A DNA stretch of 39,024 bases. Origin: Escherichia phage JSS1. Numbering within the stretch: the first letter of the stretch is position 1; each line of letters begins with the position of its first letter. The DNA is taken from sequence record KX689784. The stretch is one strand, 5' to 3'. Below, piece by piece: positions 783-16,090 of the stretch. The notes beneath the pieces are model-generated. The model did no database searches and had not been told where the DNA came from. It saw only the letters and a program-made list of their open reading frames with translations. Made by a program: the position numbers and the translations under genes.

Positions 783-1325
783 TTACTTGTGGTTTCTATG
801 GGTCCTATCACGCTTAGGGGACCGTCGGTTTACTGCGTATTCCTTGTGCTTCTCAGTGCGTAAAGCATCAAGCCACACCTCTAGTTCCTCTATGGAATCT
901 GAGGTCTTCGTGAAGCACTTACCTTTTAGGCGCAACTGAGCGCGATACTTTCCGGTAGGCTTGAAAAAGCTGATACCTTTGGGTAGACCATTAGTATCGC
1001 CACCTCCTGAGTTCCATCGGTTCTCTAATGCTGTTACTAACCTGTAGTTATCCGGCCTGTCATCAAGTCTATCACCATTGATATGGTCAACCATCATGCC
1101 AGAAGGTATTCGACCAACGACTAGGCTGTAGATGATTCTGGCACGTCTATACCGACTGCCAAGAACCTTCACGATTGCGTACCCAGACGGATGAACTGAA
1201 TGTCCCATTACCTCACCGGGCTTCTTGCGAGATCCTTTATAAGGTTTCCTACACACCAACTCACCATCTACATAAGCATAGTGATTAAAGAGGGCCACCC
1301 TGTCGATGGCCTTCTGTTTACTCAT
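783..1325 (-). CDS. HNH homing endonuclease with AP2-like DNA-binding domain (180 aa)
   Basis: ATG at 1325 preceded by GGAGGAGGAG. HNH motif MVDHINGDRLDDRPDNYRLVT followed by an AP2-like segment GISFFKPTGKYRAQLRLKGKCFTKTSDSIEELEVW. Inserted between gene 19 and the phiOR promoter; not in T7. Confidence 0.8.
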   Translation of the reverse strand: MSKQKAIDRVALFNHYAYVDGELVCRKPYKGSRKKPGEVMGHSVHPSGYAIVKVLGSRYRRARIIYSLVVGRIPSGMMVDHINGDRLDDRPDNYRLVTALENRWNSGGGDTNGLPKGISFFKPTGKYRAQLRLKGKCFTKTSDSIEELEVWLDALRTEKHKEYAVNRRSPKRDRTHRNHK

Positions 1326-1341: not shown

Positions 1342-3102
1342 TTAGTGGAACGTAACGTATGACCCTAGTCCAAGCTCGTCCATATCGTGAGTTACCCGGA
1401 CCCCATTGTCCCAGAACTCAGTGTGGATGGACTCGAAGCCTTTCCGTGGGTTCTCCATCTGTTCCTCCAGCCACTCCTCAGTGACTTCACGTTCGCCTTT
1501 GTTGGCATCCTTAGCCATAGACTCAACGAAGAACTGTACACCGATAGCCAGCGCATCAAGTCGGTCATCGTGTGCCAAGGCTCCACGTTCACGAGAGATA
1601 CGGGTCATCTGATAGAAGAGAGAGTAGATAGGGTTACGAACACCATCCTTATCAGAGGCTGACTGGTAGTCTTGGACGATAGCAGCAGCGTTAACGATAA
1701 GTCGGTGAGACCCCATGATAGGCTCCAGAACGTCACAGATGCGGAGTTCTTTCTGACCCTTACTCTTCACTTCAGTTACAGCCGCAGGATGGATACGGGC
1801 CGCTACAGGCTTGAATAGCTCAAGGTACATGCCATCACCGAAGTTACCCTCAATGACGTATTCGTTGACCTTCCACTTACGACCAATCTTAGCCAAGGCT
1901 TCCAGCGTAGAGTCTTCATAACCACCACGCATGCCACCAACTTCCATAGCGAAGATGTAGCCGTTTAGCTGGTACAGTACCGCATAGCCAGTTTCATCCT
2001 TACCACGACCACTAGGGTCAATGACCAGAATCTTCTGGGTGTACGAGCTGAAGGCAGAACCTACAGTCTGATACGTGTGGTATGAATCACCCATGAGTCC
2101 AACGTTAGGAACGTCCTCACGCTTGTTCTGAGGGTTTGGCAACCATTGGTAGACCATTGGGCTGGACGCTGGGTCCAAGTCGGCTACGATAAGGTCACGG
2201 AGCTTTAGAGGGTACTTCTCAGCATCACTCAGGTTCGGGTTAAGCATGAACTGTAGAGCGAAGCCAGCCTTGCCATATGACAGCTCACGTTCCTTCAGGT
2301 CCGTATCATCGAAGCGTACTTCGTCGGTCGGACGCCAGTAGAATGACTCAGGGTCCTCTTCCAGCTCTGCCTGAAGCATAGGAGCCAGACGGTCGCCGTA
2401 AGACTGCCAGTCATTCTTATCGCGTGGATAACGAGCGGGCCAGATAGTAGTGGTATACCCACGACCTTCCAGCTCACGATACAGGGTCATCTCGTTCTGA
2501 GGAGTACCCAGATAGATGATTGTACCTCCCGGCTTCAGGATAGCGTCGAACTCTTTCACAAGCTCTGACAGACGGTCTCGTGCGGCCTGAGTCGCTGAGT
2601 TGTTCGGAACCTCTACGTCATCGGCAATCAGGATGTCAGCACGACTACCAGTCAACTGACCAGTGATACCAACAGACTTAACCGAAGGTGAGTGGTCTGG
2701 CTTGGCTGGCCCAACGTCGAAGCTAATAACCGCATCTCGCTGTCCCTGCTTAGGTTTGAGTTCCTGAAGCTGAGGCATGAGGTCGATGATTCGCTTGATG
2801 AATATGGAGTTAGCATCGGCTCGTTCTTTTGAGGCAGACACAATCATGAACTTCAAGTCTGGGTTGTTCCATAGTTTCCAGACCACGAATGCACACGTAA
2901 TGAAGGACTTCCCGATACCACGGAACGCCTGTAGGATGAAACGCCTGTTGTCCCCAGCCGATAGTTTCTTCGCCATGTCAATCTGACAGCGAGTCGGGAC
3001 TGGGAGTGACAGAGCTTTCCATAATACGAACAGGAAGAACACGAAGTCTGCCTTCATACGTGCTGTCATTAGCGCCTGACGCGCCACTAAGTCTTTACTC
3101 AA
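1342..3102 (-). CDS. 19: Terminase large subunit (T7 gp19 homolog, 586 aa)
   Basis: Strong similarity to T7 gp19 ([48 protein letters not shown]), same length as T7. Start codon is TTG at 3102 with AAGGAGGTG 5 nt upstream; it overlaps the gp18.5 TGA. Confidence 0.93.
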
Positions 3103-3548
3103 TGCGTCACCTCCTTATCTTGCTGCAAGGCTCTCACAGTGTCCTGAAGGGCCTTAATCCACTTGTCTCCTTTCACTCCGATGGCGATAAGACGTTTAGC
3201 ATCTCGTTCGTCAAGTTCGGCGTAACCATCAACGATGCATCGACCGTCACTTTGCGTGGCTCCACTCGTAGGTTTGACTCGGATGCGCAGCCGCTTATTG
3301 TCAGACTGAAGGTCAGCAATAATCCTATCAGTGCTGCCTTCCAGCGAGGACATTTCGTCCTGAAACCGTTTGGACACTTTGTTGACTTCAGCTTGGACAG
3401 CAAGCCTTGTATCTTCCGATGCCTTAAGATTCGAGGTGTATTCTGCATTGACCTTAGCCTCCCACTTATTGTTAGCGGTGTGGTAGCCACCAGCAAACAT
3501 CACTGCTGCAAGTAACCACGGAGCCGCTCTCTTTAAAAATTCGAGCAT
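3099..3548 (-). CDS. 18.5: Rz-like i-spanin (T7 gp18.5 homolog, 149 aa)
   Basis: N-terminus [18 protein letters not shown] and [24 protein letters not shown] resemble T7 gp18.5. N-terminal TM segment. GGGAGGG RBS. Confidence 0.85.
3173..3448 (-). CDS. Candidate Rz1-like o-spanin lipoprotein embedded in the +1 frame of gene 18.5
   Basis: Alternate-frame ORF inside 18.5 with a hydrophobic stretch ending in lipobox-like LTISGC and a proline-containing mature part. First ATG at 3448 (GGGAGG upstream) gives an unusually long N-region, so the true start is uncertain. Confidence 0.35.
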   Translation of the reverse strand: MQNTPRILRHRKIQGLLSKLKSTKCPNGFRTKCPRWKAALIGLLLTFSLTISGCASESNLRVEPRKVTVDASLMVTPNLTNEMLNVLSPSE

Positions 3549-3913: not shown

Positions 3914-4104
3914 GTTTTACCACCTCCTTTAATCGTTTTGTAGACTAGCACACCAATCTGGACAACGGTGTACGCGATAGCTGCAACGTAGAACCATTCG
4001 TTCAGTGTAAGTCCGAAGAAGAACCGACTGGCACCATCAGCCGCAGCGGTCCCGACTATAGGAGAGGCTTTAAGGACCTCATTCTTGAAGTCTAACTCAA
4101 TCAT
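3910..4104 (-). CDS. 17.5: Class II holin (T7 gp17.5 homolog, 64 aa)
   Basis: FFFGLTLNEWFYVAAIAYTVVQIG is near-identical to the T7 gp17.5 core. GGAGG RBS. Confidence 0.88.
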   Translation of the reverse strand: MIELDFKNEVLKASPIVGTAAADGASRFFFGLTLNEWFYVAAIAYTVVQIGVLVYKTIKGGGKT

Positions 4105-4175
4105 AAAACCTCCAGTTTAAAGCGGGTCGTCCGTGACCCAAAGTTGTTACATACGCTAGTCAGCGTGTAGTTAGT

Positions 4176-6362
4176 CTATATCTCCTCTCCCCTCCACGAG
4201 CAATCGATAATCCCTCCGCGCACCATCTTCCACCGCATGTTGTACGACGCCGAAGGAACAAGCTTTATACCAACACCCAAATTGGGAGCTGTTTCAACAG
4301 ACTTAATCCACGCGTTATTTGAATTATTGTACGTGAATGTTAATTGCTCTGTATTAGTGTAGAAGTCATCAGTACATGTTGTTATTGCTGCTGAAGTATT
4401 CGCAGAATCTGCCCCATTAAAATAATACAGCTCAAAGGCTATGTAGCCGTGGTTCTTCATCCTCGTAGCAAACACACCGCCAGTGTTTCTTGCCGCAATA
4501 CCACCCTGTTTAAATGTAGTGTTACGCTCACCTTGTACGCTCCCGGTATTGATAGTCTGGAATGGTGTGACATCGGCAGAACTGTACTTGTCATTGTACA
4601 ACTGCATAGCTCCACCCATTCTATCCGGGTAAAATGCATACACATCTATGTCATAAGGTTTTTGTCTAGGTGCAGAATTTAATTCTTTCCCTAAAGCATA
4701 CAAATCAGTATCGGTGGTCAATGTGTTGTGTGTGTTTACGATGAGTTGTGTCTCCCACGAGAACGCCGCATACTCACCGTCACCCATGTTAAAAAACTTC
4801 TTAGCGAAAGCTATCTGTTTTGCTTTGTTTTTGAAGTTGTCAGAACCACCATTTGCGTCAGTTGTAAACAATCCAACACAAGGTACAATTCTTGATGTGG
4901 GACATTTATACTTCAGTTCCCCCCACCCAATAACAGCCTGTCGCTTATTCCGGGCATCATCCCAGTCATCATGGTAATACGCGTCTGCAAATATAATATC
5001 ATATCCAGTACCACCATAACCGTTCGGGTGTGTATTTGAGTCAAACCCAAAAATACCATTTTCAGCTATGCATAATGATTTTTCTGTGAATGATTTAAAT
5101 GCCGAGATGCGCGTTTCTTGCACTGCTCTGCTTACTGAATTATTTTGCGGTTCATCAAACAAGTAATAGCCGATAACGCAATCTCTGCTGTCAAGGTCTG
5201 TAGCCGGAGTGTTTGTCTGCCCGTATACTGGCCCACCAAGTATAAGTTTAAGCCCAACAGCTTCTGCGGCGTTACAGGCCTTTTCCATATTCCCACCGTT
5301 TGTCCACGCTTGACCGTAGTGAATTAGCGTATTAAACCCGGCGGTTTTTAGTTGTAACATGTCACAAATATCAAACACGCGATGAACGTATACAGCCTTC
5401 ATCAGTGAATGGTCTACAGGTATTTCACTATCAAGTTCACATGGAACGTTTGGTAGCCTTGTGTATGTGATGGTGGCCTTTCCTGTCAATCTGGCTCCTT
5501 CAGGCCAATCAAAACTCGATAATGTCGTGGCGCCAGTTACGTGTGCGTACCCGTGGTCCGATACGGCTGATAGCACCGCGTCTTTACCATCAGCACCACT
5601 ACCATAAACATACCCGTAATTAGAGATGTCTGCGCGGTCTAAATTTAATCGTTGTTGAACAGTTAATCCGTTATTAGTCCCAACTAAATTGGAACCATTA
5701 TTTGTTTTAAGTGCGCTTCTTAATGACGCGTCCCCAACACTAACCCACGCGCCCAGCCCAATACCACCGGAAGTTTCAGGAGTTGAACCAGCAGGAACGT
5801 TCTTTGGAAGCGTACCATCCCAGCGGTAATAATCACCATCCTCTTCCCATAGCAGGACCTCGTTCCATGTTGTAACGTTGAAGCCTTTCTCGAAGGAGCG
5901 ACGGGTAATATGGCCAATTAGACCAGATGCCTTGATATTCTCAGCGATTCGTCGTGCTTCGTCCTCGCTATCCTTAGCGCTGCCAGCAGAGCTACTAGCA
6001 GCATCGGCATATTCCTTAGCTAAGTCAACCGTTTGGTCTCGACCTTCTTCTGCAATATGGATAGCCTGAAGCTCTGCATTGGTCAGGTCACTAGCTGTCA
6101 ACACTGAGCCATTCCTGAAGTCTACCACTAAGTCAGTTCCAGTCTGACGGTGAATACGAACGATGTCGAAACCTGATTGGTCAATCAACATCTCAATCAT
6201 CGTTGGATTAAGGAATCGGTAATCTCGACCAACTTCCAGTACACGGTTCATGGCAGGGTTAGAGCTATTCACCAGCGTAACAACAACGAACGTTCTGGCT
6301 AGGTAGTCGAACTCAATCCTGTACTGAGTGTTTCCTGAAGGGAATTGTGTAATAGTGGACAT
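4176..6362 (-). CDS. 17: Tail fiber protein (728 aa): T7 gp17-like N-terminal attachment domain plus a long divergent C-terminal receptor-binding, possibly enzymatic, domain
   Basis: N-terminus FDYLARTFVVVTL...LVVDFRNGSVLTASDL...AIHIAEEGRD matches the T7 gp17 N-terminal domain. The remaining ~570 aa are unlike T7 and include a GYYLFDEP motif reminiscent of TIM-barrel glycoside hydrolases. AGGAGG RBS. Confidence 0.85.
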   Translation of the reverse strand: MSTITQFPSGNTQYRIEFDYLARTFVVVTLVNSSNPAMNRVLEVGRDYRFLNPTMIEMLIDQSGFDIVRIHRQTGTDLVVDFRNGSVLTASDLTNAELQAIHIAEEGRDQTVDLAKEYADAASSSAGSAKDSEDEARRIAENIKASGLIGHITRRSFEKGFNVTTWNEVLLWEEDGDYYRWDGTLPKNVPAGSTPETSGGIGLGAWVSVGDASLRSALKTNNGSNLVGTNNGLTVQQRLNLDRADISNYGYVYGSGADGKDAVLSAVSDHGYAHVTGATTLSSFDWPEGARLTGKATITYTRLPNVPCELDSEIPVDHSLMKAVYVHRVFDICDMLQLKTAGFNTLIHYGQAWTNGGNMEKACNAAEAVGLKLILGGPVYGQTNTPATDLDSRDCVIGYYLFDEPQNNSVSRAVQETRISAFKSFTEKSLCIAENGIFGFDSNTHPNGYGGTGYDIIFADAYYHDDWDDARNKRQAVIGWGELKYKCPTSRIVPCVGLFTTDANGGSDNFKNKAKQIAFAKKFFNMGDGEYAAFSWETQLIVNTHNTLTTDTDLYALGKELNSAPRQKPYDIDVYAFYPDRMGGAMQLYNDKYSSADVTPFQTINTGSVQGERNTTFKQGGIAARNTGGVFATRMKNHGYIAFELYYFNGADSANTSAAITTCTDDFYTNTEQLTFTYNNSNNAWIKSVETAPNLGVGIKLVPSASYNMRWKMVRGGIIDCSWRGEEI

Positions 6363-6409
6363 TATGCCTCCTGTTATGAATTAAAGGGAGACCTATGGTA
6401 GCGACTCCC

Positions 6410-6432
6410 GTTTCCTATAGTGATAGTTTAGT
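6410..6432 (-). promoter_or_regulatory. Phage RNAP promoter (phi17-like), consensus class
   Basis: Minus-strand GGACTAAACTATCACTATAGGAAACGG, overlapping the gene 16 stop. Confidence 0.8.
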
Positions 6433-9400
6433 CCTTGATGTGGATGCCTTGCTCCTCAAACGTTCCAAGCAGCAACTTCTGGGTAATTGGGTCGTTCGGA
6501 ACCAGTTCACGGAACGTATTATACATCCCGGTCATGTAGTCACGCTCGTTGACACGAGTATCAGCCTTTAGGTAGCCAGCCAAGTTGTAAGCCGAAGCGC
6601 CAACGTTAGCAGCATATCCGAAAGCTGGAACCTGCTCCAAGAAGTTACCAACAATATTCATCACAGGGTCACTTGTAGACGCACCATATGTGAAAGCACG
6701 TTCAGGCTTCTCTGTAGGTGAACGAGGGAGGATAGACGAACGGAGCATCTTAGTGTCCTCATACCCAGCGATACCACCAAGAATGTTGGCGACTCCAAGT
6801 GGTCCACCCAGATGTGAACTACGGGACAGAGCCGCATAGCCAATCATCGTCGGGTCCAGAGCTTGCTTGAGGTATTCACGGTCTCGACCATCCTGCATAG
6901 CGTAAGCCTTGACGTGAGCTTGAGCCATGTAGTAGATACCAGACAGACCCATAGACATCACAGTAGACAGTGCAGCGTCCATCGCTCGGTTGTTCTTCGT
7001 GGCGTTATAGAAGGTTCGCATGGTTCGACCATTGATGGACTTGATGACGAAGTTCTTAAACTGAAGGACAGTCTTAGCGATAGGGCCATAAGCCTTGGCA
7101 TCCATGTTAGACAGCTTATAAGGTCGTAGTAACGTTTCATCAGCGATGGTGTCACCCATACGCCACAGGTCCATAGCCCTTGGATCCTGACTGAACGCCT
7201 TCTTATCCTTGATGGTGTACTTCCCGTCTGGACCACGAGTCACTGACTCACGGATTAGGGACTTAATGCCCTTCCACTGCTCGTCAGAGATACCAGCGGT
7301 CTTCAGCCAGCGGTCATCGAACCGACGCTTACTGCCAGTCAGACTATGCTCCACGATGTCAGACAGGAATCCCTGACGTCCAGCATCTAACAGGTAGTTG
7401 GTCGTACCGTTGAGGACTTTAGTGAACGGAGAGCGTACTGCAAGTTCACCAGTGTAATACTTGGCAGTCCCCAGAGCTGTAGCCGTACCACGACCGAGGT
7501 CACTGTAAGACCGCAGACGGTCGATGACATCCTGTTTAGACGGACGGATTGAGTCATCAAGTTCCTTACCGAAGAGAACATTGTGAAGGTCCTTAATCTC
7601 TGAGGCTCCTACCTTCTTGTTACGGAAGGCTAGGTCACGGAACATCGGGACTCCATGAAGCAGCGCACGAACGTTACCACGAGCCAGCATACCACCAATC
7701 TCCGTTAAGTTCTGAACACCCATGTAGGCATTCTTAGCGAAGAACGATAGGTCTGTCATTGTGCGCATCACGGTAGCGAAGGCTGCATCATCAGCACCAT
7801 CACGTCGAGCACGACCAGTGAGAATCTTCAAGGTGTCACGTAAGGTAGATACTTCACCTTTCAACTTACCGTCATCCCCAGCCTTGTTCATCATGGTCTC
7901 AACCAAGTCCTTCATGTCCTTCGTGGTTTTGCCTGTACCAGCCATGATAGCAATATCGCCATTAACTCGACGGTTGTAGGCCGGGACAATCTTGTCCATG
8001 TCCCACTCACGAAGGTTGTTGACACTGAAGGTCTGACCGTTAGGCAGGACGATTGACATATCACTATCGAACAGGTTACGAGCCTCAAGGAAGCTGTTGT
8101 TCTCCAGACCAACCAGACCGTTGATATTCTCTTCCATTACGGATGAGCGTTCGAACTTCTCGGTGTGAGAGATACCGTAAGCCTTATCGTTGGCGTACTT
8201 ATCGACAGCAGCCGCAAGTCCTTCTGGAGTCAACGTAGGGTCAGACTCTAAGAGTGCCTCGTCCACACGTTTCTTGACTTCAGGTCGAGACGCATAGCTG
8301 GTCAACCATGATTTCTTGATGGCCTCCTGTAGTGCCTCTGGACTTCCAAGCTCCTTGATGTACAGCTCCTTCATCTGGTTACTATACACATGCGGGACGT
8401 AGGTTCCCTTGAAGCGGCTACCAGGAAAGATAGACTGAGCGTCTGGACGACCAAACATCGCTGGGTTCTCCATCATCTCACGCTTGGCGTCGAACTGGTT
8501 CTTCAGCAGGTCATAGACTTTCAGTTCTCCCGGAGTCAGTTCAGCCTTCAGGTTTCCGCTACCATCTTCGATAGCCATAGACACACGCTGGTAGACGTCC
8601 TGACGGAATGCGCCAGAGTCTCGCCAGAATGCTGTCTGGAAGTACGGGTCCTTTAGTGCCTCAGTAACCGCATCGTCGATGTCGTTGTAGAACCGATGGT
8701 CCACAGCACGAAGTCTCTCGAATACGTCTGACGCAGTGGTCCCGATTTTACCTGAGGCACCGGACTGCATACCAGTCGGTGAACGCACTAAGTCCGCAGC
8801 GACTCCACGAATCTCAGGGTTCTCAGACCGAAGCAGCTTCAGGCCAATCTCAGTTAGCCCACCAAGGTTCACACCCGCAGCGGCACGTTCAGGCTCAATC
8901 ACTTCGTCAAAGACTTGACGTGTCTTAGGGTTCAGAAGGTTCTCACCAATCAGGATTGAACCATCTTCCAGTCGTACACTACCCGGCTCGTTCGGAACGT
9001 CAGCGAACTTAACGCCTTGATGACTAAAGGTCTGCTCACCTTCCTGAATAGGGAGACGAGACAGGTCCTGACCATCAACGTTACGAGCGGTCTCACGAGC
9101 TTCCAGACGTGTAGCTGGACCAGCAAACTCATTAGTGTTGCGACCTAAGGCTCTGCCTAAACCATCAGCGATAGCAGTCATACCGCCACCGAAGAGAGCA
9201 CCGCCAAGGATAGCCTCAGCCACATGAGCATCACCACCAGCCACTGAGGTACGGGCCATCTCCGACACACCAGCCAGTGCTCCAGATTGAGCAGCCACGG
9301 TGAACATCTTGTTGACCAGCTTACCGCCTTTACCAACCTGTCCAGCGATAGGAACGTAGGTCAGCGGGTCTACACCAGCACCAATCACACCAGCAGCTAA

Positions 9401-10315
9401 CTGAGCACCAATCCCGGCCTTGGCCTTCTCTTGGTCCAACTTCTGGTTCTCAAGCGCCAAGTTAATAAGCTCGGTCAGGTTCTGAGGGGAGCCACCAGTA
9501 ATGACCCCGTAATACTGAGGAAGAACTCCAGCGTTACGAATCTGGTCCAGCTCCTCACGAGACCACTTATGGTTGTTCCAGCGGGTCGGGTTGAACACAT
9601 CGCCAATGACATCAAGTGAGTCCTCGGTCTGACCAGCGCGGATAGCCACGCCGACCATAGAGTTCTTCACTTCAGATTCTGTAGCAGAACCAAAACCGAA
9701 CCACGTAGAGCGGTCCTCTCGTTCCTGCATGGTCTCGCCAGTAGACTTATAGAACATCTCACCGAACGATTCGTTGGGAGCTTCAGGTGCTTGACCCTCA
9801 ATGTTCAGACCAGCAGCGGTCGGAAGGTTCTCACCAAGAGCTACTTTAGGTTTAGCCTTGAGTCCTTCCGTGAGTGCGTCAAATACGTTAGCGCTTACTG
9901 GTGGAGTCTTTGGGCTAATGCCATTGAGTGCTCGTGCGACTCCCTTCTGATAGACTTCAGGGTCGTACCGGGAGCCTGTCTCATGGAAGCTGATAGCTTG
10001 AGCCAGAGAAGACAGGGTGTCAGGGTCCGATAGGTCGAGACTCTGGGTAGCTGGAATACCAGTTGCAGCCACCACTGAGTCAATATAAGCCTTAGTGTCG
10101 TTCTCGTTAGGAGGTGCCCATCGGTTGATAATCTTCTCGATGGAGTCATAACCTTGGCGACCGTAGGACAGCAGGTTTTTACCTAAAGCTCGGACGCCAG
10201 ACTCTGGACTATCGAATGTGACGAATGCGCCATCATCTCCAGTCATTCCTTCCCATTGGTCCTTACTTACCCGGATGTTACCCGGATTGTTATTGCGAAT
10301 ACCACGAGTCGCCAT
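6428..10315 (-). CDS. 16: Internal virion (core) protein D (T7 gp16 homolog) with a divergent N-terminal domain
   Basis: Extensive similarity to T7 gp16 from about residue 200 onward (STWFGFG, PTRWN, GAGVDPL, EARETARN, SPTGMQSGASGK, FLEARNLFDSD, ALSRSS). ATG at 10315 with AAGGAG RBS; the track start at 10333 is a TTG extension. The first ~120 aa (GIRNNNPGNIR...) differ from the T7 gp16 transglycosylase region. Confidence 0.9.
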   Translation of the reverse strand: MATRGIRNNNPGNIRVSKDQWEGMTGDDGAFVTFDSPESGVRALGKNLLSYGRQGYDSIEKIINRWAPPNENDTKAYIDSVVAATGIPATQSLDLSDPDTLSSLAQAISFHETGSRYDPEVYQKGVARALNGISPKTPPVSANVFDALTEGLKAKPKVALGENLPTAAGLNIEGQAPEAPNESFGEMFYKSTGETMQEREDRSTWFGFGSATESEVKNSMVGVAIRAGQTEDSLDVIGDVFNPTRWNNHKWSREELDQIRNAGVLPQYYGVITGGSPQNLTELINLALENQKLDQEKAKAGIGAQLAAGVIGAGVDPLTYVPIAGQVGKGGKLVNKMFTVAAQSGALAGVSEMARTSVAGGDAHVAEAILGGALFGGGMTAIADGLGRALGRNTNEFAGPATRLEARETARNVDGQDLSRLPIQEGEQTFSHQGVKFADVPNEPGSVRLEDGSILIGENLLNPKTRQVFDEVIEPERAAAGVNLGGLTEIGLKLLRSENPEIRGVAADLVRSPTGMQSGASGKIGTTASDVFERLRAVDHRFYNDIDDAVTEALKDPYFQTAFWRDSGAFRQDVYQRVSMAIEDGSGNLKAELTPGELKVYDLLKNQFDAKREMMENPAMFGRPDAQSIFPGSRFKGTYVPHVYSNQMKELYIKELGSPEALQEAIKKSWLTSYASRPEVKKRVDEALLESDPTLTPEGLAAAVDKYANDKAYGISHTEKFERSSVMEENINGLVGLENNSFLEARNLFDSDMSIVLPNGQTFSVNNLREWDMDKIVPAYNRRVNGDIAIMAGTGKTTKDMKDLVETMMNKAGDDGKLKGEVSTLRDTLKILTGRARRDGADDAAFATVMRTMTDLSFFAKNAYMGVQNLTEIGGMLARGNVRALLHGVPMFRDLAFRNKKVGASEIKDLHNVLFGKELDDSIRPSKQDVIDRLRSYSDLGRGTATALGTAKYYTGELAVRSPFTKVLNGTTNYLLDAGRQGFLSDIVEHSLTGSKRRFDDRWLKTAGISDEQWKGIKSLIRESVTRGPDGKYTIKDKKAFSQDPRAMDLWRMGDTIADETLLRPYKLSNMDAKAYGPIAKTVLQFKNFVIKSINGRTMRTFYNATKNNRAMDAALSTVMSMGLSGIYYMAQAHVKAYAMQDGRDREYLKQALDPTMIGYAALSRSSHLGGPLGVANILGGIAGYEDTKMLRSSILPRSPTEKPERAFTYGASTSDPVMNIVGNFLEQVPAFGYAANVGASAYNLAGYLKADTRVNERDYMTGMYNTFRELVPNDPITQKLLLGTFEEQGIHIKD

Positions 10316-10319
10316 TATG

Positions 10320-12602
10320 TTACTCCTTACCAATTAGTACGTTTGCGATACCCTCCAGTGAGACGTCATTGTACACCCCACCGCGCTTCTCGATGTTGGC
10401 CTCTTGGTCAGCTCGACGTTTGTCACCAGCAGCTTTAGTCCCGACGATACGCGCTCGCTTGTTAGCGTCACGTTCTGCCTGAGCGTATGCGGCATCTTGT
10501 GCCTTCTGCTGTTGTTCGCGGTAGAGTTTACCTACAAGTTCTTTATCGTATCGAATACGAATAGTCCCTGTAGCGTCTTGGAGGAAGATAGAGCCGTTCT
10601 GTTCAACAACGGACAACTGAGAGTTCACTACCCAAGGGTTGGCCTTAATGAGCTGCTTGCGAGCTATGTCGATGATGTCTCGACCCACCTTCCAAGACTC
10701 AGGGTCATCCCCGACCATAAGTTGATGATGGGACACCATGCCGATGGACTTACCATCCTGACCATCATCGGTGAAAGTAACGGTGTTTTCATTCAACCAC
10801 TTCTGGGTATGCTGAGTGGCTCCGTCAGCGTTACCTGTCCTGTAGTACCATGAGTCCCAGACCTTACGAGCAGTTGAGTCCAGAGACGTTGGAAGACGCG
10901 AAAGGTCCTTATTCCGAGAGTCGTTCTTCAACTCCTGCCACGCCTTGTCTGACTCAATGCGCATCTCACGGCTTTGACTTGCAGCTTGTTTATCAGCTTC
11001 AATCAGCGTCTGAGGGTCCAGACCTATCTTGTCCATCTGCTCGAAAGTCGTGAACAATTGGGCCTGCTCAGGATACAGAGCAGCAAAACTTGAAGGGTCC
11101 TGAGTGTAGGCACGACGAAGAGACTCGAAGCGTTTCATCTTATCTGGGTCGTACTGTCCACGGATGACCGCAGCTTGCCACTCACCATCAGCATCCTGAG
11201 TAAGAGTCTGGAAGGCGTTACGGAATGGGCCATTGTTGGTATCAGCTCTTAACAATGCCACCTTCTGAGCATCCTTAGCAGCCTCAGGGATGTCCATCTG
11301 GTCAATCTGCTGTAGCTTGGCAGACGCATAGTTGTTCATGTCTGAACGCTTAAACTCTCCTGTAGCTTCAGAGACCGGAAGGTCCTCATAGTTGGTGGAC
11401 ACGTTGTCACCAGCCAGACGTCGCTGATAAACTTGGTCTATGACCAGTTGCTTGTTCTGGGTCTGGATTAACTTAGTGTTCTCCTTCGCCTGTTCAGCGG
11501 ACTTACGCTTGACCGCTTCCAGTAAGCTGGCTTCGGCATTAATAAGCATCTGACGCTGAGGCGTTAGTTCTTCACCAGACTGAAGCAGGTTGTTCTGCTC
11601 CTTGAGTTTCTGAATCTGGGCAAGACCAATGGTTGGGTCATCCTGAAGAATCGCAGACTGAACGCCTAACGCTAAGTCTTCCTGATACTTAGCCACCAGC
11701 TTGTACTCAGTTCCTTGTGCCTCAACAATAGCAGCGTTGAAGACATCAGGTCCCACAATCTCTTCGACTGTAGCGTCCACACCGTTAAGGGTGATTCGCT
11801 CGCCTCGTACTTGCTGTAGGAAGTTTGAGCCGCCAGACTTCTGGATTGCGTCACGGACCGTCTGGGTAATTACCTCTCGTGCTCGCTGGTCAGAAGGGAT
11901 AGCAGCAGTCGTCAGTCCATCCCGAAGATAGGCCATGAAGGTCTTTCCAGACTCAGGCGAACGCATCAGGTCCCCATCGTTAAGGAACGAGTTCATCTCA
12001 ATACGAGTGTTCAACATTGCTGTCTCTTCAGACTGCTTGCTGAAATACTTATTGAAAGATCCATAGATAGCGATGTTGCGGTCTGTGATGTTATCGTTGA
12101 ACCCACGCTGGAAGAACTCATCGGTAGGGTTAATGCCCGCCTCTTCAGCATAGGACTTAGCGGCATCCTGAAGTCGCTGGTGGCGATACTCTTCCATGTC
12201 CTGACGTGTGCGGAACTCACCGTTCTGAATCTTAACGTTAATCTCGTCATCCACCGCAAAGGCAGCGTTACGACCGGTCTTTACTCGAAGTGCTTCCATA
12301 GCGTAAGGGTCATCCTGATACAGCAATGTGCCGTTCTGGATAGCCTCACGTCTTTGCTGAGGTGTCAGCTTACGGATAATCTCGTTAGACCGGTCGTCAG
12401 CTCTGGTCTTCTCATCGTCCTTGAACTGCTTGTATAGTCCAGTACCAGACTCAACGAAGTTGGTTAACGCCCGAGCCAGGCCTGAGTCACCAGTTGGAGC
12501 CTGAACGCTGGCTGCTTGATAGTTGACGGCGATAGTTTTACCCGGCGCTCTGCCACGACCCATAGTCCGATTAGCCAGAGCTGATTCAATATTACTAGCC
12601 AT
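10320..12602 (-). CDS. 15: Internal virion (core) protein C (T7 gp15 homolog, 760 aa)
   Basis: Size and position between gp14 and gp16; GAGGAGG RBS before ATG at 12602. Confidence 0.85.
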   Translation of the reverse strand: MASNIESALANRTMGRGRAPGKTIAVNYQAASVQAPTGDSGLARALTNFVESGTGLYKQFKDDEKTRADDRSNEIIRKLTPQQRREAIQNGTLLYQDDPYAMEALRVKTGRNAAFAVDDEINVKIQNGEFRTRQDMEEYRHQRLQDAAKSYAEEAGINPTDEFFQRGFNDNITDRNIAIYGSFNKYFSKQSEETAMLNTRIEMNSFLNDGDLMRSPESGKTFMAYLRDGLTTAAIPSDQRAREVITQTVRDAIQKSGGSNFLQQVRGERITLNGVDATVEEIVGPDVFNAAIVEAQGTEYKLVAKYQEDLALGVQSAILQDDPTIGLAQIQKLKEQNNLLQSGEELTPQRQMLINAEASLLEAVKRKSAEQAKENTKLIQTQNKQLVIDQVYQRRLAGDNVSTNYEDLPVSEATGEFKRSDMNNYASAKLQQIDQMDIPEAAKDAQKVALLRADTNNGPFRNAFQTLTQDADGEWQAAVIRGQYDPDKMKRFESLRRAYTQDPSSFAALYPEQAQLFTTFEQMDKIGLDPQTLIEADKQAASQSREMRIESDKAWQELKNDSRNKDLSRLPTSLDSTARKVWDSWYYRTGNADGATQHTQKWLNENTVTFTDDGQDGKSIGMVSHHQLMVGDDPESWKVGRDIIDIARKQLIKANPWVVNSQLSVVEQNGSIFLQDATGTIRIRYDKELVGKLYREQQQKAQDAAYAQAERDANKRARIVGTKAAGDKRRADQEANIEKRGGVYNDVSLEGIANVLIGKE

Positions 12603-12613
12603 TAGTCCTCCTC

Positions 12614-13201
12614 TTAGCTATGACCTGTAGGTGTGCCTTTAGCAGCACTAATTGGTGCAGAACCACCAGAGCTGGACTCTCCAGAGATTGACTTACCAGC
12701 GGCGTAGCCTTGCATCCCGGCGGTAGCAACATTAAGTGCATGAGCCAGTGGGCTGGTCTTGATAATTTTACCTTGACCACGGATAGCAGACTTGGTGTTC
12801 TCAATGTTGGCGATACGGTTCCCGAAGATAGCCGCATAGTCGCGGTTGTAACTTTCGGTAATCCCTGCTCGCTCCTTGACTGTATCTCCTGCGACCTGAC
12901 GTTCAATCCTGTCCATAGAGTTACCTTCCAGACCTGACTCAGCCACCGCAGCTCGGACCATACCCTGATTGCGGATACCGTTGAGTGTGGTCTCTGTCAG
13001 TTCAGCCATCTGCTGCTCCTTCAGGTCTCGCTCCTGCATCTTCAGGTTCGCGTCAGAGTAGTTCATCTGCTTAACCATTTCCTGAGCCTGTCGGTTCTGA
13101 GCGTCAATTGCTGCACCTTCGGCCTTGGCCTGCTGGGATGCGGACATAGTGGCCCCGGCTGTAGCCATGATACCCATGCCGATACTTACGGGTTCACACA
13201 T
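12614..13201 (-). CDS. 14: Internal virion (core) protein B (T7 gp14 homolog, 195 aa)
   Basis: Starts MC..., has GSSMDRI and a C-terminal KGT.TG tail as in T7 gp14. AAGGAGG RBS. Confidence 0.85.
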   Translation of the reverse strand: MCEPVSIGMGIMATAGATMSASQQAKAEGAAIDAQNRQAQEMVKQMNYSDANLKMQERDLKEQQMAELTETTLNGIRNQGMVRAAVAESGLEGNSMDRIERQVAGDTVKERAGITESYNRDYAAIFGNRIANIENTKSAIRGQGKIIKTSPLAHALNVATAGMQGYAAGKSISGESSSGGSAPISAAKGTPTGHS

Positions 13202-13656
13202 ACGTCCTCCTTAGAGATAGTGAATAGTTGAAAACGCTCACCAGTTACTGGGCTGATAGTCCAATCATCATGGAACTTAGCCCCAAGCAACTTCAAGAAT
13301 TTAATGTGAGACTTATTGCCTGACCACACGTAGTTCCAGATGGTCCCGTATTGGTCTAACATTAAGTCCCTGTACTCAGAGATACGCTTTATGAACTCTC
13401 GCTTCTCTTTAGGTCTCAGCTTATAGACAAGACCGGAAGTCAAGAACCATACGTTATCACCTTGGTTTCCACCATAGGCAAACACTTCGCCTACACCGTT
13501 CGTTAAAACCACAGATGACGGGGATAAATGCTTAAGCAGTCTTTCAGAGAGACCAACGGTTGACCCATAGTTTGCTTTGCACTCATTAACATCATCTGCT
13601 GAAAGATGCCACAGAAAGTAGTGGACATCTGGTTCCGTAGCCTTGCGAATATACAT
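13186..13656 (-). CDS. 13: gp13-position virion/assembly protein (156 aa)
   Basis: Sits between gene 12 and gene 14 directly downstream of a consensus promoter. AAGGAGA RBS. Identity by synteny only. Confidence 0.55.
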   Translation of the reverse strand: MYIRKATEPDVHYFLWHLSADDVNECKANYGSTVGLSERLLKHLSPSSVVLTNGVGEVFAYGGNQGDNVWFLTSGLVYKLRPKEKREFIKRISEYRDLMLDQYGTIWNYVWSGNKSHIKFLKLLGAKFHDDWTISPVTGERFQLFTISKEDVCVNP

Positions 13657-13685
13657 AAAGTCTCCTTATAACCTTAAGGGCCTAT

Positions 13686-13708
13686 AGTCCCTATAGTGAT
13701 AGTTAAGG
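13686..13708 (-). promoter_or_regulatory. Phage RNAP promoter (phi13-like), consensus class
   Basis: Minus-strand CTTAACTATCACTATAGGGACTATAGG. The +1 region partially repeats the promoter core (CCTATAGTCC-CTATAGTG on the plus strand). Confidence 0.8.
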
Positions 13709-13732
13709 TAAATCTATAGGCCCTTCAATAAG

Positions 13733-16090
13733 TTAGACGGAACGAGCTTTCTTAGCGTATGACGCCTCCCAGCCACACCCAACGATTGACACTGGGGTGG
13801 GATAGTCGGACTCTAAGGTTAGACTCGTGGTTAATGTGTTACCATTCATAGCGAAGCGATACTGCCCGTCACCAATGTTTGTAGTCCCGATGGTTTGCTG
13901 CCCAAGGGTGTACCCGTTGAAGGTATTCACGAACTCCCGCTCACCGTTTCTGACAATGAGTCTCAGAGCGCCAGTGTCTTTGTAGTTTACCCAAGCCCGA
14001 CGAAGCTGTAGACGACCAGTGTCTTCAGACTGAGTGCCACTATCATCTTCAATCTTAATCAGGAACCGTGAGAACTTGTAGGACATCAGATAGGACCGTC
14101 CGATGAACACTGTGCGTCCTGACCAATCGCCGTTGAGGATAACCACAGTAGAGCTACTGGTCAAGTCCCCAAGGTCCACATAAGCACCCTGACTGTCAAT
14201 CAGATAGTACCGACCGGGAGACGGAGCGTTGCCGCCATAAGCAGCACCAATGTCAACCGTAGTCTTATATGCGTCAGCATTATATGAGTCAATTGGAATT
14301 ACCATAGACACCTTGGAGTCAATGTGTAGTCTATATGGCTCTGACGGGAAGTCAGTTGCCTCCTTGATGAACTTAAGGTGCTCAATGTCTACCCCTCCTT
14401 GGTGCTGACGAACGATGAACATGGTAGAGCCAATAGAAGCAGACGCCAGAATCTTATCATCTTTAGGGAACTCCCAGTGTGACCAAGAGGCTTGAAGCTG
14501 TACGCCGTCCTTAAACAAGAACTTGTAGATGTAGATACGGTTGTATGCACCTGTAGAGTTGACGCAGATGTAGTTCTCAGTCCCTGTACCTTGAATATCA
14601 AACACCCCGTTAGGGATGTAGGACAGTACGTGACCAGTTGTATCATCGGCATCCTTCACATCAGACACATCAGCTACAGCGAAGTATCGCTTAATGCTGG
14701 TGAATGACCCACGAGGCGCTGAGAAGAAGACTGAGCGTCCTACAGCGAACGGTCTGGCATTGTCCCCTAGGGCAAACTCTGAGCCTACATCAAGCTGGAT
14801 AGACTTCGAGGTAAGTACCCCAGAGCTTGTCATCACGAACTGAACCTCATCCGACCAAAGTAGTAGCTGCTCGCTAAACGGAACGGCATACTTAAGGATT
14901 GAGATTCGAGGGTTACTTACAGCTACATCAATAGGGTCATCATCACTCAGTGTCGCCACACTCTTAGGGAAGAACGCAAAGTAGCTGGCTGAACGGCTCA
15001 TGATTACGTTCTCACCCGACAAGAACCCAAGTCTGTTCCTGTAGAAGAACACATCATTAATCGTAGCATCAACGAAGCTAGGCATAGGGTTTGTGTCATC
15101 GTTACCAGCACCACGCTTGGACCAATCCAGAGTCTTGAACTCAAAGGAGCCATCAAACTGTCTGACCAGAGCATGTGGCATTGTGGTGACATCGAACCCA
15201 GTTACAACTCCCGGCTCCACTGTCTCCTTCCACGTCTTAGTGTTGGAGTCATACATCACGTAGTATTCATCGGCGCTACTGTTTGTCTCACCTTGAATCT
15301 TAATGATATACCCATTAGGAGCGGCAAGAGGTAGTTTAGAGATTGTCTGCACAGTGTCTAGGACTGGGCTTATTAGCTGGTTAGCGTAGCCATCCTCCGT
15401 CTCCACTGAGTTAATGTCGGTCCCTTCAGGGGCAGTAATTAACAGGAAGCCAGACCCAAGGTCGAACGTGAAAGAAGGATAGGCAGTAACAAGAAGGCCT
15501 CTCAGAGTTGCACCAATGGCTTGAGCGTCAACCTTAGGCGGGTCATTCGCGGCATCGTTACCTGCTGGTAGCTTATGAGAGACCTTAACGCCACCGTTGA
15601 TTCCCACCTTAAGGGTTCGACCATACTGTCCACCACGCAGGTTAATTAAAGCTCGTGCTTTGCGGTTATAACCAGAGTGTGACTTCTCGCTTCCACCTTT
15701 GACTACAACCTTACGGTTAACGACGAACGTATAGTCTGCCACGGTAACGACGCGGATGTCATCTCGCGGGTTGGAGGACTTAACGTAATCTACCGCACCG
15801 GACACTGAGTATTGATTACCACTCAAGTCAACTACCTGAATGTTGGACCCATTGAACACGATGTAATACTGCTCATGCTCGTCACGGTTAATCAGGTGGA
15901 ACTTAGGGTTACTCCCAACGTCGATGTTAAGACGTCTCTTGAAGACTGTAGGTGGGCGCTTCTGGAGACCATCACTCTCGGATGACCAGCAGTTAACCTG
16001 TGCCTCGCCTTGGTCTGAGAACCTCAGTATATCAGGCTGTTGGCTAATACCACCTTTAAGGTTCTTGATTGATTGAGTAATTAGTGGCAT
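13733..16090 (-). CDS. 12: Tail tubular protein B (T7 gp12 homolog, 785 aa)
   Basis: Length and position; AAGGAGGG RBS. Confidence 0.88.
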   Translation of the reverse strand: MPLITQSIKNLKGGISQQPDILRFSDQGEAQVNCWSSESDGLQKRPPTVFKRRLNIDVGSNPKFHLINRDEHEQYYIVFNGSNIQVVDLSGNQYSVSGAVDYVKSSNPRDDIRVVTVADYTFVVNRKVVVKGGSEKSHSGYNRKARALINLRGGQYGRTLKVGINGGVKVSHKLPAGNDAANDPPKVDAQAIGATLRGLLVTAYPSFTFDLGSGFLLITAPEGTDINSVETEDGYANQLISPVLDTVQTISKLPLAAPNGYIIKIQGETNSSADEYYVMYDSNTKTWKETVEPGVVTGFDVTTMPHALVRQFDGSFEFKTLDWSKRGAGNDDTNPMPSFVDATINDVFFYRNRLGFLSGENVIMSRSASYFAFFPKSVATLSDDDPIDVAVSNPRISILKYAVPFSEQLLLWSDEVQFVMTSSGVLTSKSIQLDVGSEFALGDNARPFAVGRSVFFSAPRGSFTSIKRYFAVADVSDVKDADDTTGHVLSYIPNGVFDIQGTGTENYICVNSTGAYNRIYIYKFLFKDGVQLQASWSHWEFPKDDKILASASIGSTMFIVRQHQGGVDIEHLKFIKEATDFPSEPYRLHIDSKVSMVIPIDSYNADAYKTTVDIGAAYGGNAPSPGRYYLIDSQGAYVDLGDLTSSSTVVILNGDWSGRTVFIGRSYLMSYKFSRFLIKIEDDSGTQSEDTGRLQLRRAWVNYKDTGALRLIVRNGEREFVNTFNGYTLGQQTIGTTNIGDGQYRFAMNGNTLTTSLTLESDYPTPVSIVGCGWEASYAKKARSV

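Follow-up and report, generated by a model that had tools for sequence, protein, structure and literature searches.

Most characterised phage depolymerases are beta-helices, and because of this the available tools and reviews are biased to that fold. A rare class of tailspike depolymerases is built on a TIM barrel instead. Among 313 fibres and spikes of A. baumannii phages, a TIM-barrel 'transglycosidase domain' has been described in Aci07, Bestia, AB3P2 and APK26 (PMC11823257, PMC11058221). For APK26 gp48, hydrolysis of the K26 capsule is established (PMC11126041), and Aci07 forms halos (PMC11058221). The tailspike encoded by gene 17 of Escherichia phage PE3-1 adds to this class a new and so far uncharacterised member from an E. 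coli phage. We consider it probable that, as a whole, this protein is a mosaic tailspike in which a docked N-terminus carries an exchanged endo-glycosidase receptor module.

The four Acinetobacter proteins named above are also recovered as homologues of PE3-1 gp17. A tblastn search of 50,697 phage genomes gave distant homologues at 24-29% identity in Acinetobacter phages Bestia (E 6e-16), Aci07 (E 1e-9), APK26 (E 5e-6), AB3P2 and IME284, and furthermore in Vibrio phage PWH3a-P1, Dickeya phage Monomax and Escherichia phage TH27. In Foldseek, all 504 residues of the PE3-1 module are matched by the BFVD model of Aci07 gp45 (TMq 0.82, E 6e-34, 562 aligned columns). APK26 gp48, Aci07 gp45, Bestia gp53 and the AB3P2 protein form one sequence family with PE3-1 gp17, as seen from tblastn and from profile matches. 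They share a cap, a barrel and a C-terminal beta domain, the invariant motifs T-x-x-H-Y, D-E-P, D...Y and P-x-x-G-x-F, the lack of a strand-7 Glu, and the role of sole tailspike in a T7-like podovirus. In contrast, their identity to PE3-1 gp17 is only 17-29%, and they have Friunavirus or myovirus adaptors, Acinetobacter hosts and capsule substrates.

Neither Pfam nor NCBIfam has a model for the PE3-1 module, which is labelled 'lyase' or 'hypothetical', yet it is kin to Acinetobacter proteins that are proven depolymerases of capsules. Its definition would set the annotation right and give this rare class, which is useful for developing serotype-specific enzymes and for engineering the host range, a branch in E. 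coli. It would also bring to light an active site that does without the canonical nucleophile of clan GH-A, and a new CAZy family or mechanism may be warranted on these grounds.

Gene 17, its N-terminal adaptor and the mosaic junction

The gene occupies positions 4176-6362 of the window (the whole stretch of 39,024 nucleotides that was analysed) and lies on the minus strand, as do all of its features given below. By megablast, the record that best matches the region is Escherichia phage PE3-1 (KJ748011/NC_024379; 39,093 bp; Kayfunavirus), in reversed orientation, for which E. coli O153 is given as the host. Several features of a preliminary description of this DNA could be reproduced: the open reading frame listed there runs exactly from ATG to stop and encodes 728 aa, it is 175 aa longer than the T7 fibre (gp17, 553 aa in PDB 7boz), and its C-terminal 503 aa are rich in Gly, Thr and Asn (9.5%, 8.7% and 7.4%, respectively). 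Directly upstream lies a 1301-aa open reading frame (6428-10333) with a lysozyme-like N-terminus, an internal virion protein of the gp16 type, while small holin-like open reading frames and the terminase gene are found downstream. This is the gene-17 position. The product is named 'lyase' in GenBank (AIB06996, with the note 'gp18') and 'tail protein' in RefSeq, and it is currently misannotated.

Residues 1-150 (5913-6362) comprise a T7 gp17-type tail-attachment domain followed by a short helical linker rich in Ala, Asp and Glu, as delimited by Pfam and by alignments with 7boz and 9vvr_A. The Pfam model Phage_T7_tail (PF03906) covers aa 10-120 (E 7e-16; 58.7 bits, with a cut-off of 25.2), and the alignment with T7 gp17 is limited to aa 6-115 (E 6e-16). 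Next comes a Tail_spike_N domain (PF18668; aa 155-211, 5730-5900; E 6e-20 in Pfam), which is common to K1F endosialidase and the tailspikes of G7C and CBA120. Over aa 1-226, the identity to the solved tailspike 9vvr_A amounts to about 95%. Homology to the solved T7 and K1F-type structures establishes a docking role for the N-terminal ~215 residues, by which the protein would be attached to the Kayfunavirus tail. The preliminary description had assigned the first ~150 aa to a T7 gp17-like domain and had regarded the rest as acquired. The T7-type domain is indeed present, but the boundary has to be moved, as Tail_spike_N intervenes before the point of exchange. The claim that the C-terminal part has no relationship to the shaft and tip of the T7 fibre stands: no T7 gp17 alignment extends past aa 115, and in place of a T7-like coiled-coil shaft and C-terminal tip this part forms a TIM barrel.

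With K1F endosialidase gp17 and other Kayfunavirus tailspikes, PE3-1 gp17 shares a near-identical N-terminal part of ~215 aa (about 95% at the nucleotide level), the position in the genome and the genus. Further on, K1F gp17 consists of a beta-propeller sialidase and a cleaved C-terminal chaperone, whereas PE3-1 gp17 has a TIM barrel. A K1F-style C-terminal autochaperone is ruled out by the lack of any Peptidase_S74 match in Pfam.

The recombination junction is located at aa 212-226 (5685-5729), where the similarity to both K1F-like gp17 and 9vvr_A drops. The ~95% nucleotide similarity to K1F-like gp17 stops at window position 5716 (aa ~216), and the identity to 9vvr_A is gone after 'AWVSVGDA'. 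About 160 phage records, mostly of K1F-like Kayfunavirus, match at 90-96% nucleotide identity over query bases 1541-2187 only (aa 1-~216); in the same megablast search, PE3-1 is the only phage record that spans the rest of the gene. The N-termini carried by relatives of the module vary, and include T7-tail plus PF18668 (as in PE3-1), PF18668 alone, the P22 head-binding domain PF09008, PF27114, or none that is recognised. Furthermore, nowhere in the window, which has a mean of ~0.50, is the GC content lower than over the module (0.44-0.46). Taken together, the end of nucleotide similarity, the varied N-termini and the low GC point to a swap at aa ~213-226, right behind Tail_spike_N. The C-terminal module of PE3-1 gp17 was thus exchanged horizontally and the protein is a mosaic, in accordance with the acquisition by domain swapping that had been proposed beforehand: similarity breaks at the junction, and the same module is found behind different N-termini in its relatives.

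Fold and active-site residues of the exchanged module

An AlphaFold2 model of aa 225-728 was obtained from a 32-sequence alignment (mean pLDDT 90.7, pTM 0.89). It starts with a small alpha/beta 'cap' subdomain (aa 227-313; 5424-5684), whose modelled fold spans aa ~244-313. This is followed by a (beta/alpha)8 barrel resembling that of clan GH-A, with a short alpha3 and without alpha5 (aa 314-565; 4668-5423), and by a C-terminal all-beta jelly-roll with similarity in Foldseek to CBM6/TNF-like folds (aa 572-728; 4179-4649). The jelly-roll may serve in carbohydrate binding or in trimer contact. Structure prediction had been recommended in the preliminary description, and its outcome is a TIM barrel; a right-handed parallel beta-helix catalytic domain is absent from the model. 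The first ~70 residues of the module, in the cap, are homologous to the cap that ordinary tailspikes carry on the N-terminal side of their beta-helix: the homologue P0058 matches PF12708 there, and the full-length-homologue profile A1 aligns with the Sf6-type tailspike 7sg7. This type of cap probably explains the 'lyase' label.

Searches of Pfam, PHROGs and NCBIfam with the whole protein, its C-terminal part and remote relatives returned N-terminal adaptors only and no glycosidase model. Profile A1, when compared with PDB sequences, found P22-type head-binding domains only. A profile restricted to the barrel (A4, 31 diverse members) was needed to reach GH-A enzymes. With this profile, 45 PDB sequences were retrieved at E <= 10, and 43 of them belong to GH5, GH2, GH157, GH35 or GH42 (best E 3.7e-4).

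The motif GYYLFDEP (aa 398-405; 5148-5171, with D403-E404 at 5151-5156) is placed by the model and the alignments at the C-terminal end of strand beta4. In the PE3-1 family it reads 'viGyylfDEP' and aligns with 'VVMWSIANEP' of E. coli beta-glucuronidase (GUS), so that D403-E404 coincide with N412-E413, the acid/base motif of that enzyme. D460-A461-Y462 (4977-4985), at the end of beta6, are part of the segment 'nyDiifldsYy', which aligns with GUS 'LFDVLCLNRYY' and pairs D460 with N466 and Y462 with Y468. The segment 'FiWD' aligns with the GH5 strand-8 Trp motif, W536 corresponding to the strand-8 Trp. The situation is different at the end of beta7, where V496-G497-L498-F499 (4866-4877) take the clan GH-A nucleophile position. 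Here 'iiPvv.glF' aligns with GH5_4 'GIPVVIGEFG' and 'GIPVVITETG', with 'GEF' and 'TET' on G497-L498-F499, so that L498 or F499 stands where GH5 enzymes have their nucleophile Glu.

Conservation was counted over 169 barrel segments. E404, Q415 and D455 are present in all of them, and D403, Y462 and G342 in 168. The values are 165 for P494, 164 for P405, 150 for W536, 145 for Y349 and 128 for H348. Conversely, 165 of the 169 members are without a carboxylate at positions 497-499. Asp or Glu occurs there in P0180, P0185, P0177 and P0086 only, of which P0180 and P0185 are short (~390 aa). In an alignment that includes the Acinetobacter proteins (A3), H348, Y349, D403, E404, P405, Q415, D455, Y462 and P494 are invariant. 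The constancy of E404 and D403 indicates that GYYLFDEP is not a chance match, and its initial reading as the acid/base strand of a TIM-barrel glycosidase is borne out by its location and by the GUS alignment. The invariance of D403, E404 and Y462 down to ~20% identity is typical of an active site.

As judged from these alignments, the family keeps the GH-A acid/base residue, the Tyr after strand 6 and the Trp ending strand 8, and has lost the canonical nucleophile, while the Asn before the acid/base has become Asp. The family-wide loss of the nucleophile seems to have been previously unremarked. Compared with clan GH-A as represented by GH5, GH2 beta-glucuronidase, the GH35/GH42 beta-galactosidases and GH164, PE3-1 gp17 therefore differs in this Asp, in the Leu/Phe that replaces the strand-7 Glu, and in having its barrel embedded in a virion protein.

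Proposed mechanism and its alternatives

The barrel would be an endo-glycosidase that binds and cuts a host surface polysaccharide. Cutting would allow the phage to reach the outer membrane, and the module would set the host range. The general acid is probably E404, with which strand 4 ends. A classical Koshland mechanism is excluded because L498/F499 stand at the GH-A nucleophile position and almost the entire family lacks a carboxylate there. The second catalytic group might be the 2-acetamido group of the substrate itself, aided by D403 and Y462, in a neighbouring-group mechanism like that of GH20/GH18. Alternatively, another carboxylate (E434, D460 or E537) could act as base or nucleophile; these are not invariant, position 434 being acidic in 86% and position 537 in 85% of the 169 segments, with Asp at position 460 in 82%. 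The original proposal of a receptor-binding module with depolymerase-like activity is supported by the fold, the motif, its conservation, the mosaic origin and the kinship with APK26, and it is from these that we infer catalysis. No activity, halo or receptor data on PE3-1 were found in the literature.

In GH20, GH18 and GH85 enzymes, an adjacent Asp-Glu (or D-x-E) ends strand 4, a Tyr is conserved, and there is no enzyme nucleophile. The PE3-1 module, with D403-E404 and Y462, resembles the substrate-assisted hexosaminidases of GH20, GH18, GH85 and GH123 in all of these respects as well as in its (beta/alpha)8 barrel, and GH85 Endo-A and Endo-D are present among its Foldseek matches. On the other hand, its nearest structural and sequence neighbours belong to clan GH-A and not to clan GH-K, and the barrel-only profile gave no match to GH20, GH18, GH85 or GH123 among PDB sequences at E <= 10. 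It is conceivable, although we put this forward as a tentative and somewhat doubtful idea, that the PE3-1 and APK26 barrels constitute an unclassified GH family from clan GH-A, which has lost its nucleophile and in which a D403-E404-Y462 triad performs substrate-assisted catalysis, the members being endo-beta-N-acetylhexosaminidases of O-antigens and capsules. If true, a GH-A scaffold would have converged mechanistically on the chemistry of GH20/GH18.

The loss of the nucleophile could also mean that the module is a degenerate glycosidase, a pseudo-enzyme or lectin that only binds glycans, like some GH18-related non-enzymatic TIM barrels. Such a role is consistent with the general lack of the canonical strand-7 Glu, with the catalytic face having no invariant second carboxylate except D403, and with the presence of the non-enzymatic TIM-barrel protein haementhin (3d5h) among the Foldseek matches. 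However, APK26 gp48, which belongs to the same family, has the D-E-P/Y signature and no strand-7 Glu, is nevertheless a hydrolytic depolymerase (PMC11126041), and Aci07 makes halos (PMC11058221). That these relatives lack the same carboxylate argues that the PE3-1 family is active without it. Together with the conserved D403, E404 and Y462, this makes a purely binding role rather unlikely.

Even less probable is a carbohydrate esterase or deacetylase that modifies the glycan and does not cut it, like G7C gp63.1 or Aristophanes gp41. Deacetylating tailspikes are known from the literature, an acyltransferase gene adjoins a prophage homologue of the module, and an SGNH esterase protein and the two-domain esterase 6hh9 appear as weak Foldseek matches. 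The TM-scores of these matches are low (0.24-0.33), though, and are probably due to the beta domain. Neither an SGNH nor a CE4 motif is present, Pfam gives no match to an esterase, and the barrel aligns with glycosidases in both sequence and structure. As for a polysaccharide lyase, which we regard as extremely improbable, the GenBank product name and the resemblance of the cap to that of pectate-lyase-like beta-helix tailspikes (PF12708 in P0058; 7sg7) would speak for it, but neither fold nor sequence supports it. The label itself is ruled out by the fold, a TIM barrel with no beta-helix.

Substrate, host and spread of the module

For the endo-glycosidase module that we favour, the most likely substrate would be the O-antigen of the O153 host. 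Beta-Ribf, beta-Gal and alpha-GlcNAc are contained in the repeat of O153, and if this composition is correct, a mechanism that depends on a beta-HexNAc would not fit an O153 substrate. A homologue is carried by only nine of 5,426 complete E. coli genomes. The five best chromosomal matches have 86.1% nucleotide identity, and four of these are STEC strains from Germany and Japan for which O156:H25 is documented; the fifth, strain OkiPb01688, is absent from the O156:H25 strain text searched. The substrate is uncertain because these closest chromosomal homologues are found in O156 strains and not in O153. The only experimentally defined O153-specific tailspike is AV101 TSP3. Identity of the PE3-1 module with this protein was ruled out, as TSP3, which is included in the phage collection, is not a homologue of the module and is described as a beta-helix.

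In a collection of 5.8 billion proteins, the C-terminal 504 aa have 59 relatives with 25-89% identity. A copy with 88% identity resides in a 43-kb T1-like siphovirus contig, beside SSB and AAA_24 genes. Another copy, with 72% identity, is the tailspike of a podovirus-type prophage (13E0780), in which a T7 gp14-family core protein is encoded nearby. The next gene is the acyltransferase-family gene already mentioned, which points to seroconversion of the O-antigen and thereby to the O-antigen as receptor. When 1.84 billion cluster representatives were searched exhaustively with a profile, only 203 relatives were obtained at E <= 1e-3, with 108 at E <= 1e-30, and most of the 203 are 500-900 aa long and carry the module C-terminally. 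Members of the PE3-1 clade are enterobacterial and occur mainly in E. coli prophages and coliphages. In enterobacteria, the module moves among T7-like, P22-like, podovirus-type-prophage and T1-like backbones.

Base composition and spread of the module

The GC content of the window reaches its minimum at 4001-6000 (0.44-0.46, against a window mean of about 0.50), and this dip matches the position of the C-terminal module that gene 17 has acquired. A copy that is 88% identical to the PE3-1 module is found in a 43-kb T1-like siphovirus contig (L008, 8001-9923), and therefore the module crosses phage morphotypes. In this copy, the N-terminus consists of the Tail_spike_N domain (PF18668) only, and the gene adjoins SSB, AAA_24 and DUF3799 genes. 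A prophage of E. coli 13E0780 (O156:H25) encodes a tailspike homologue of 734 aa (L003, region 11149-14520), which is directly followed by an acyltransferase-family gene on the opposite strand; holins and a GH19 endolysin come next. This gene order points to a podovirus-type prophage that acetylates the O-antigen and is seroconverting.

Barrel variants and O153 recognition

Among 169 aligned relatives, four (P0180, P0185, P0177 and P0086) have a Glu at or beside the strand-7 nucleophile position, in segments such as 'PVYETY', 'PIYESY' and 'CGVE'. Two of them, P0180 and P0185, are short, with a length of about 390 aa. These relatives may retain the ancestral state of the family, the canonical GH-A one.

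For O153, the serogroup of the recorded PE3-1 host, a tailspike with experimentally established specificity is TSP3 of the agtrevirus AV101 (OQ973471). TSP3 is a beta-helix protein, unrelated to the PE3-1 module (4179-5690). Either O153 is targeted by two unrelated folds, or PE3-1 recognizes another glycan that its O153 host displays.

Annotation and neighbouring genes

The GenBank gene notes of PE3-1 are offset from T7 nomenclature (window 4176-10333): the tailspike carries the note 'gp18' and the product 'lyase', and the gp16-like internal virion protein of 1301 aa has the note 'gp17' and is called hypothetical. Within an ORF for an Rz-like i-spanin of 149 aa (3099-3548, minus strand), a second ORF (3173-3496, minus strand) is nested in a different frame. 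It has a lipobox-like 'LTISGC' and is probably the Rz1-type o-spanin, as in T7 genes 18.5/18.7.

A 180-aa ORF at the genome's right end (783-1325, minus strand), annotated as HNH endonuclease with the note 'gp20', closely follows the large terminase gene. In T7-like phages, homing endonucleases are common at this position.
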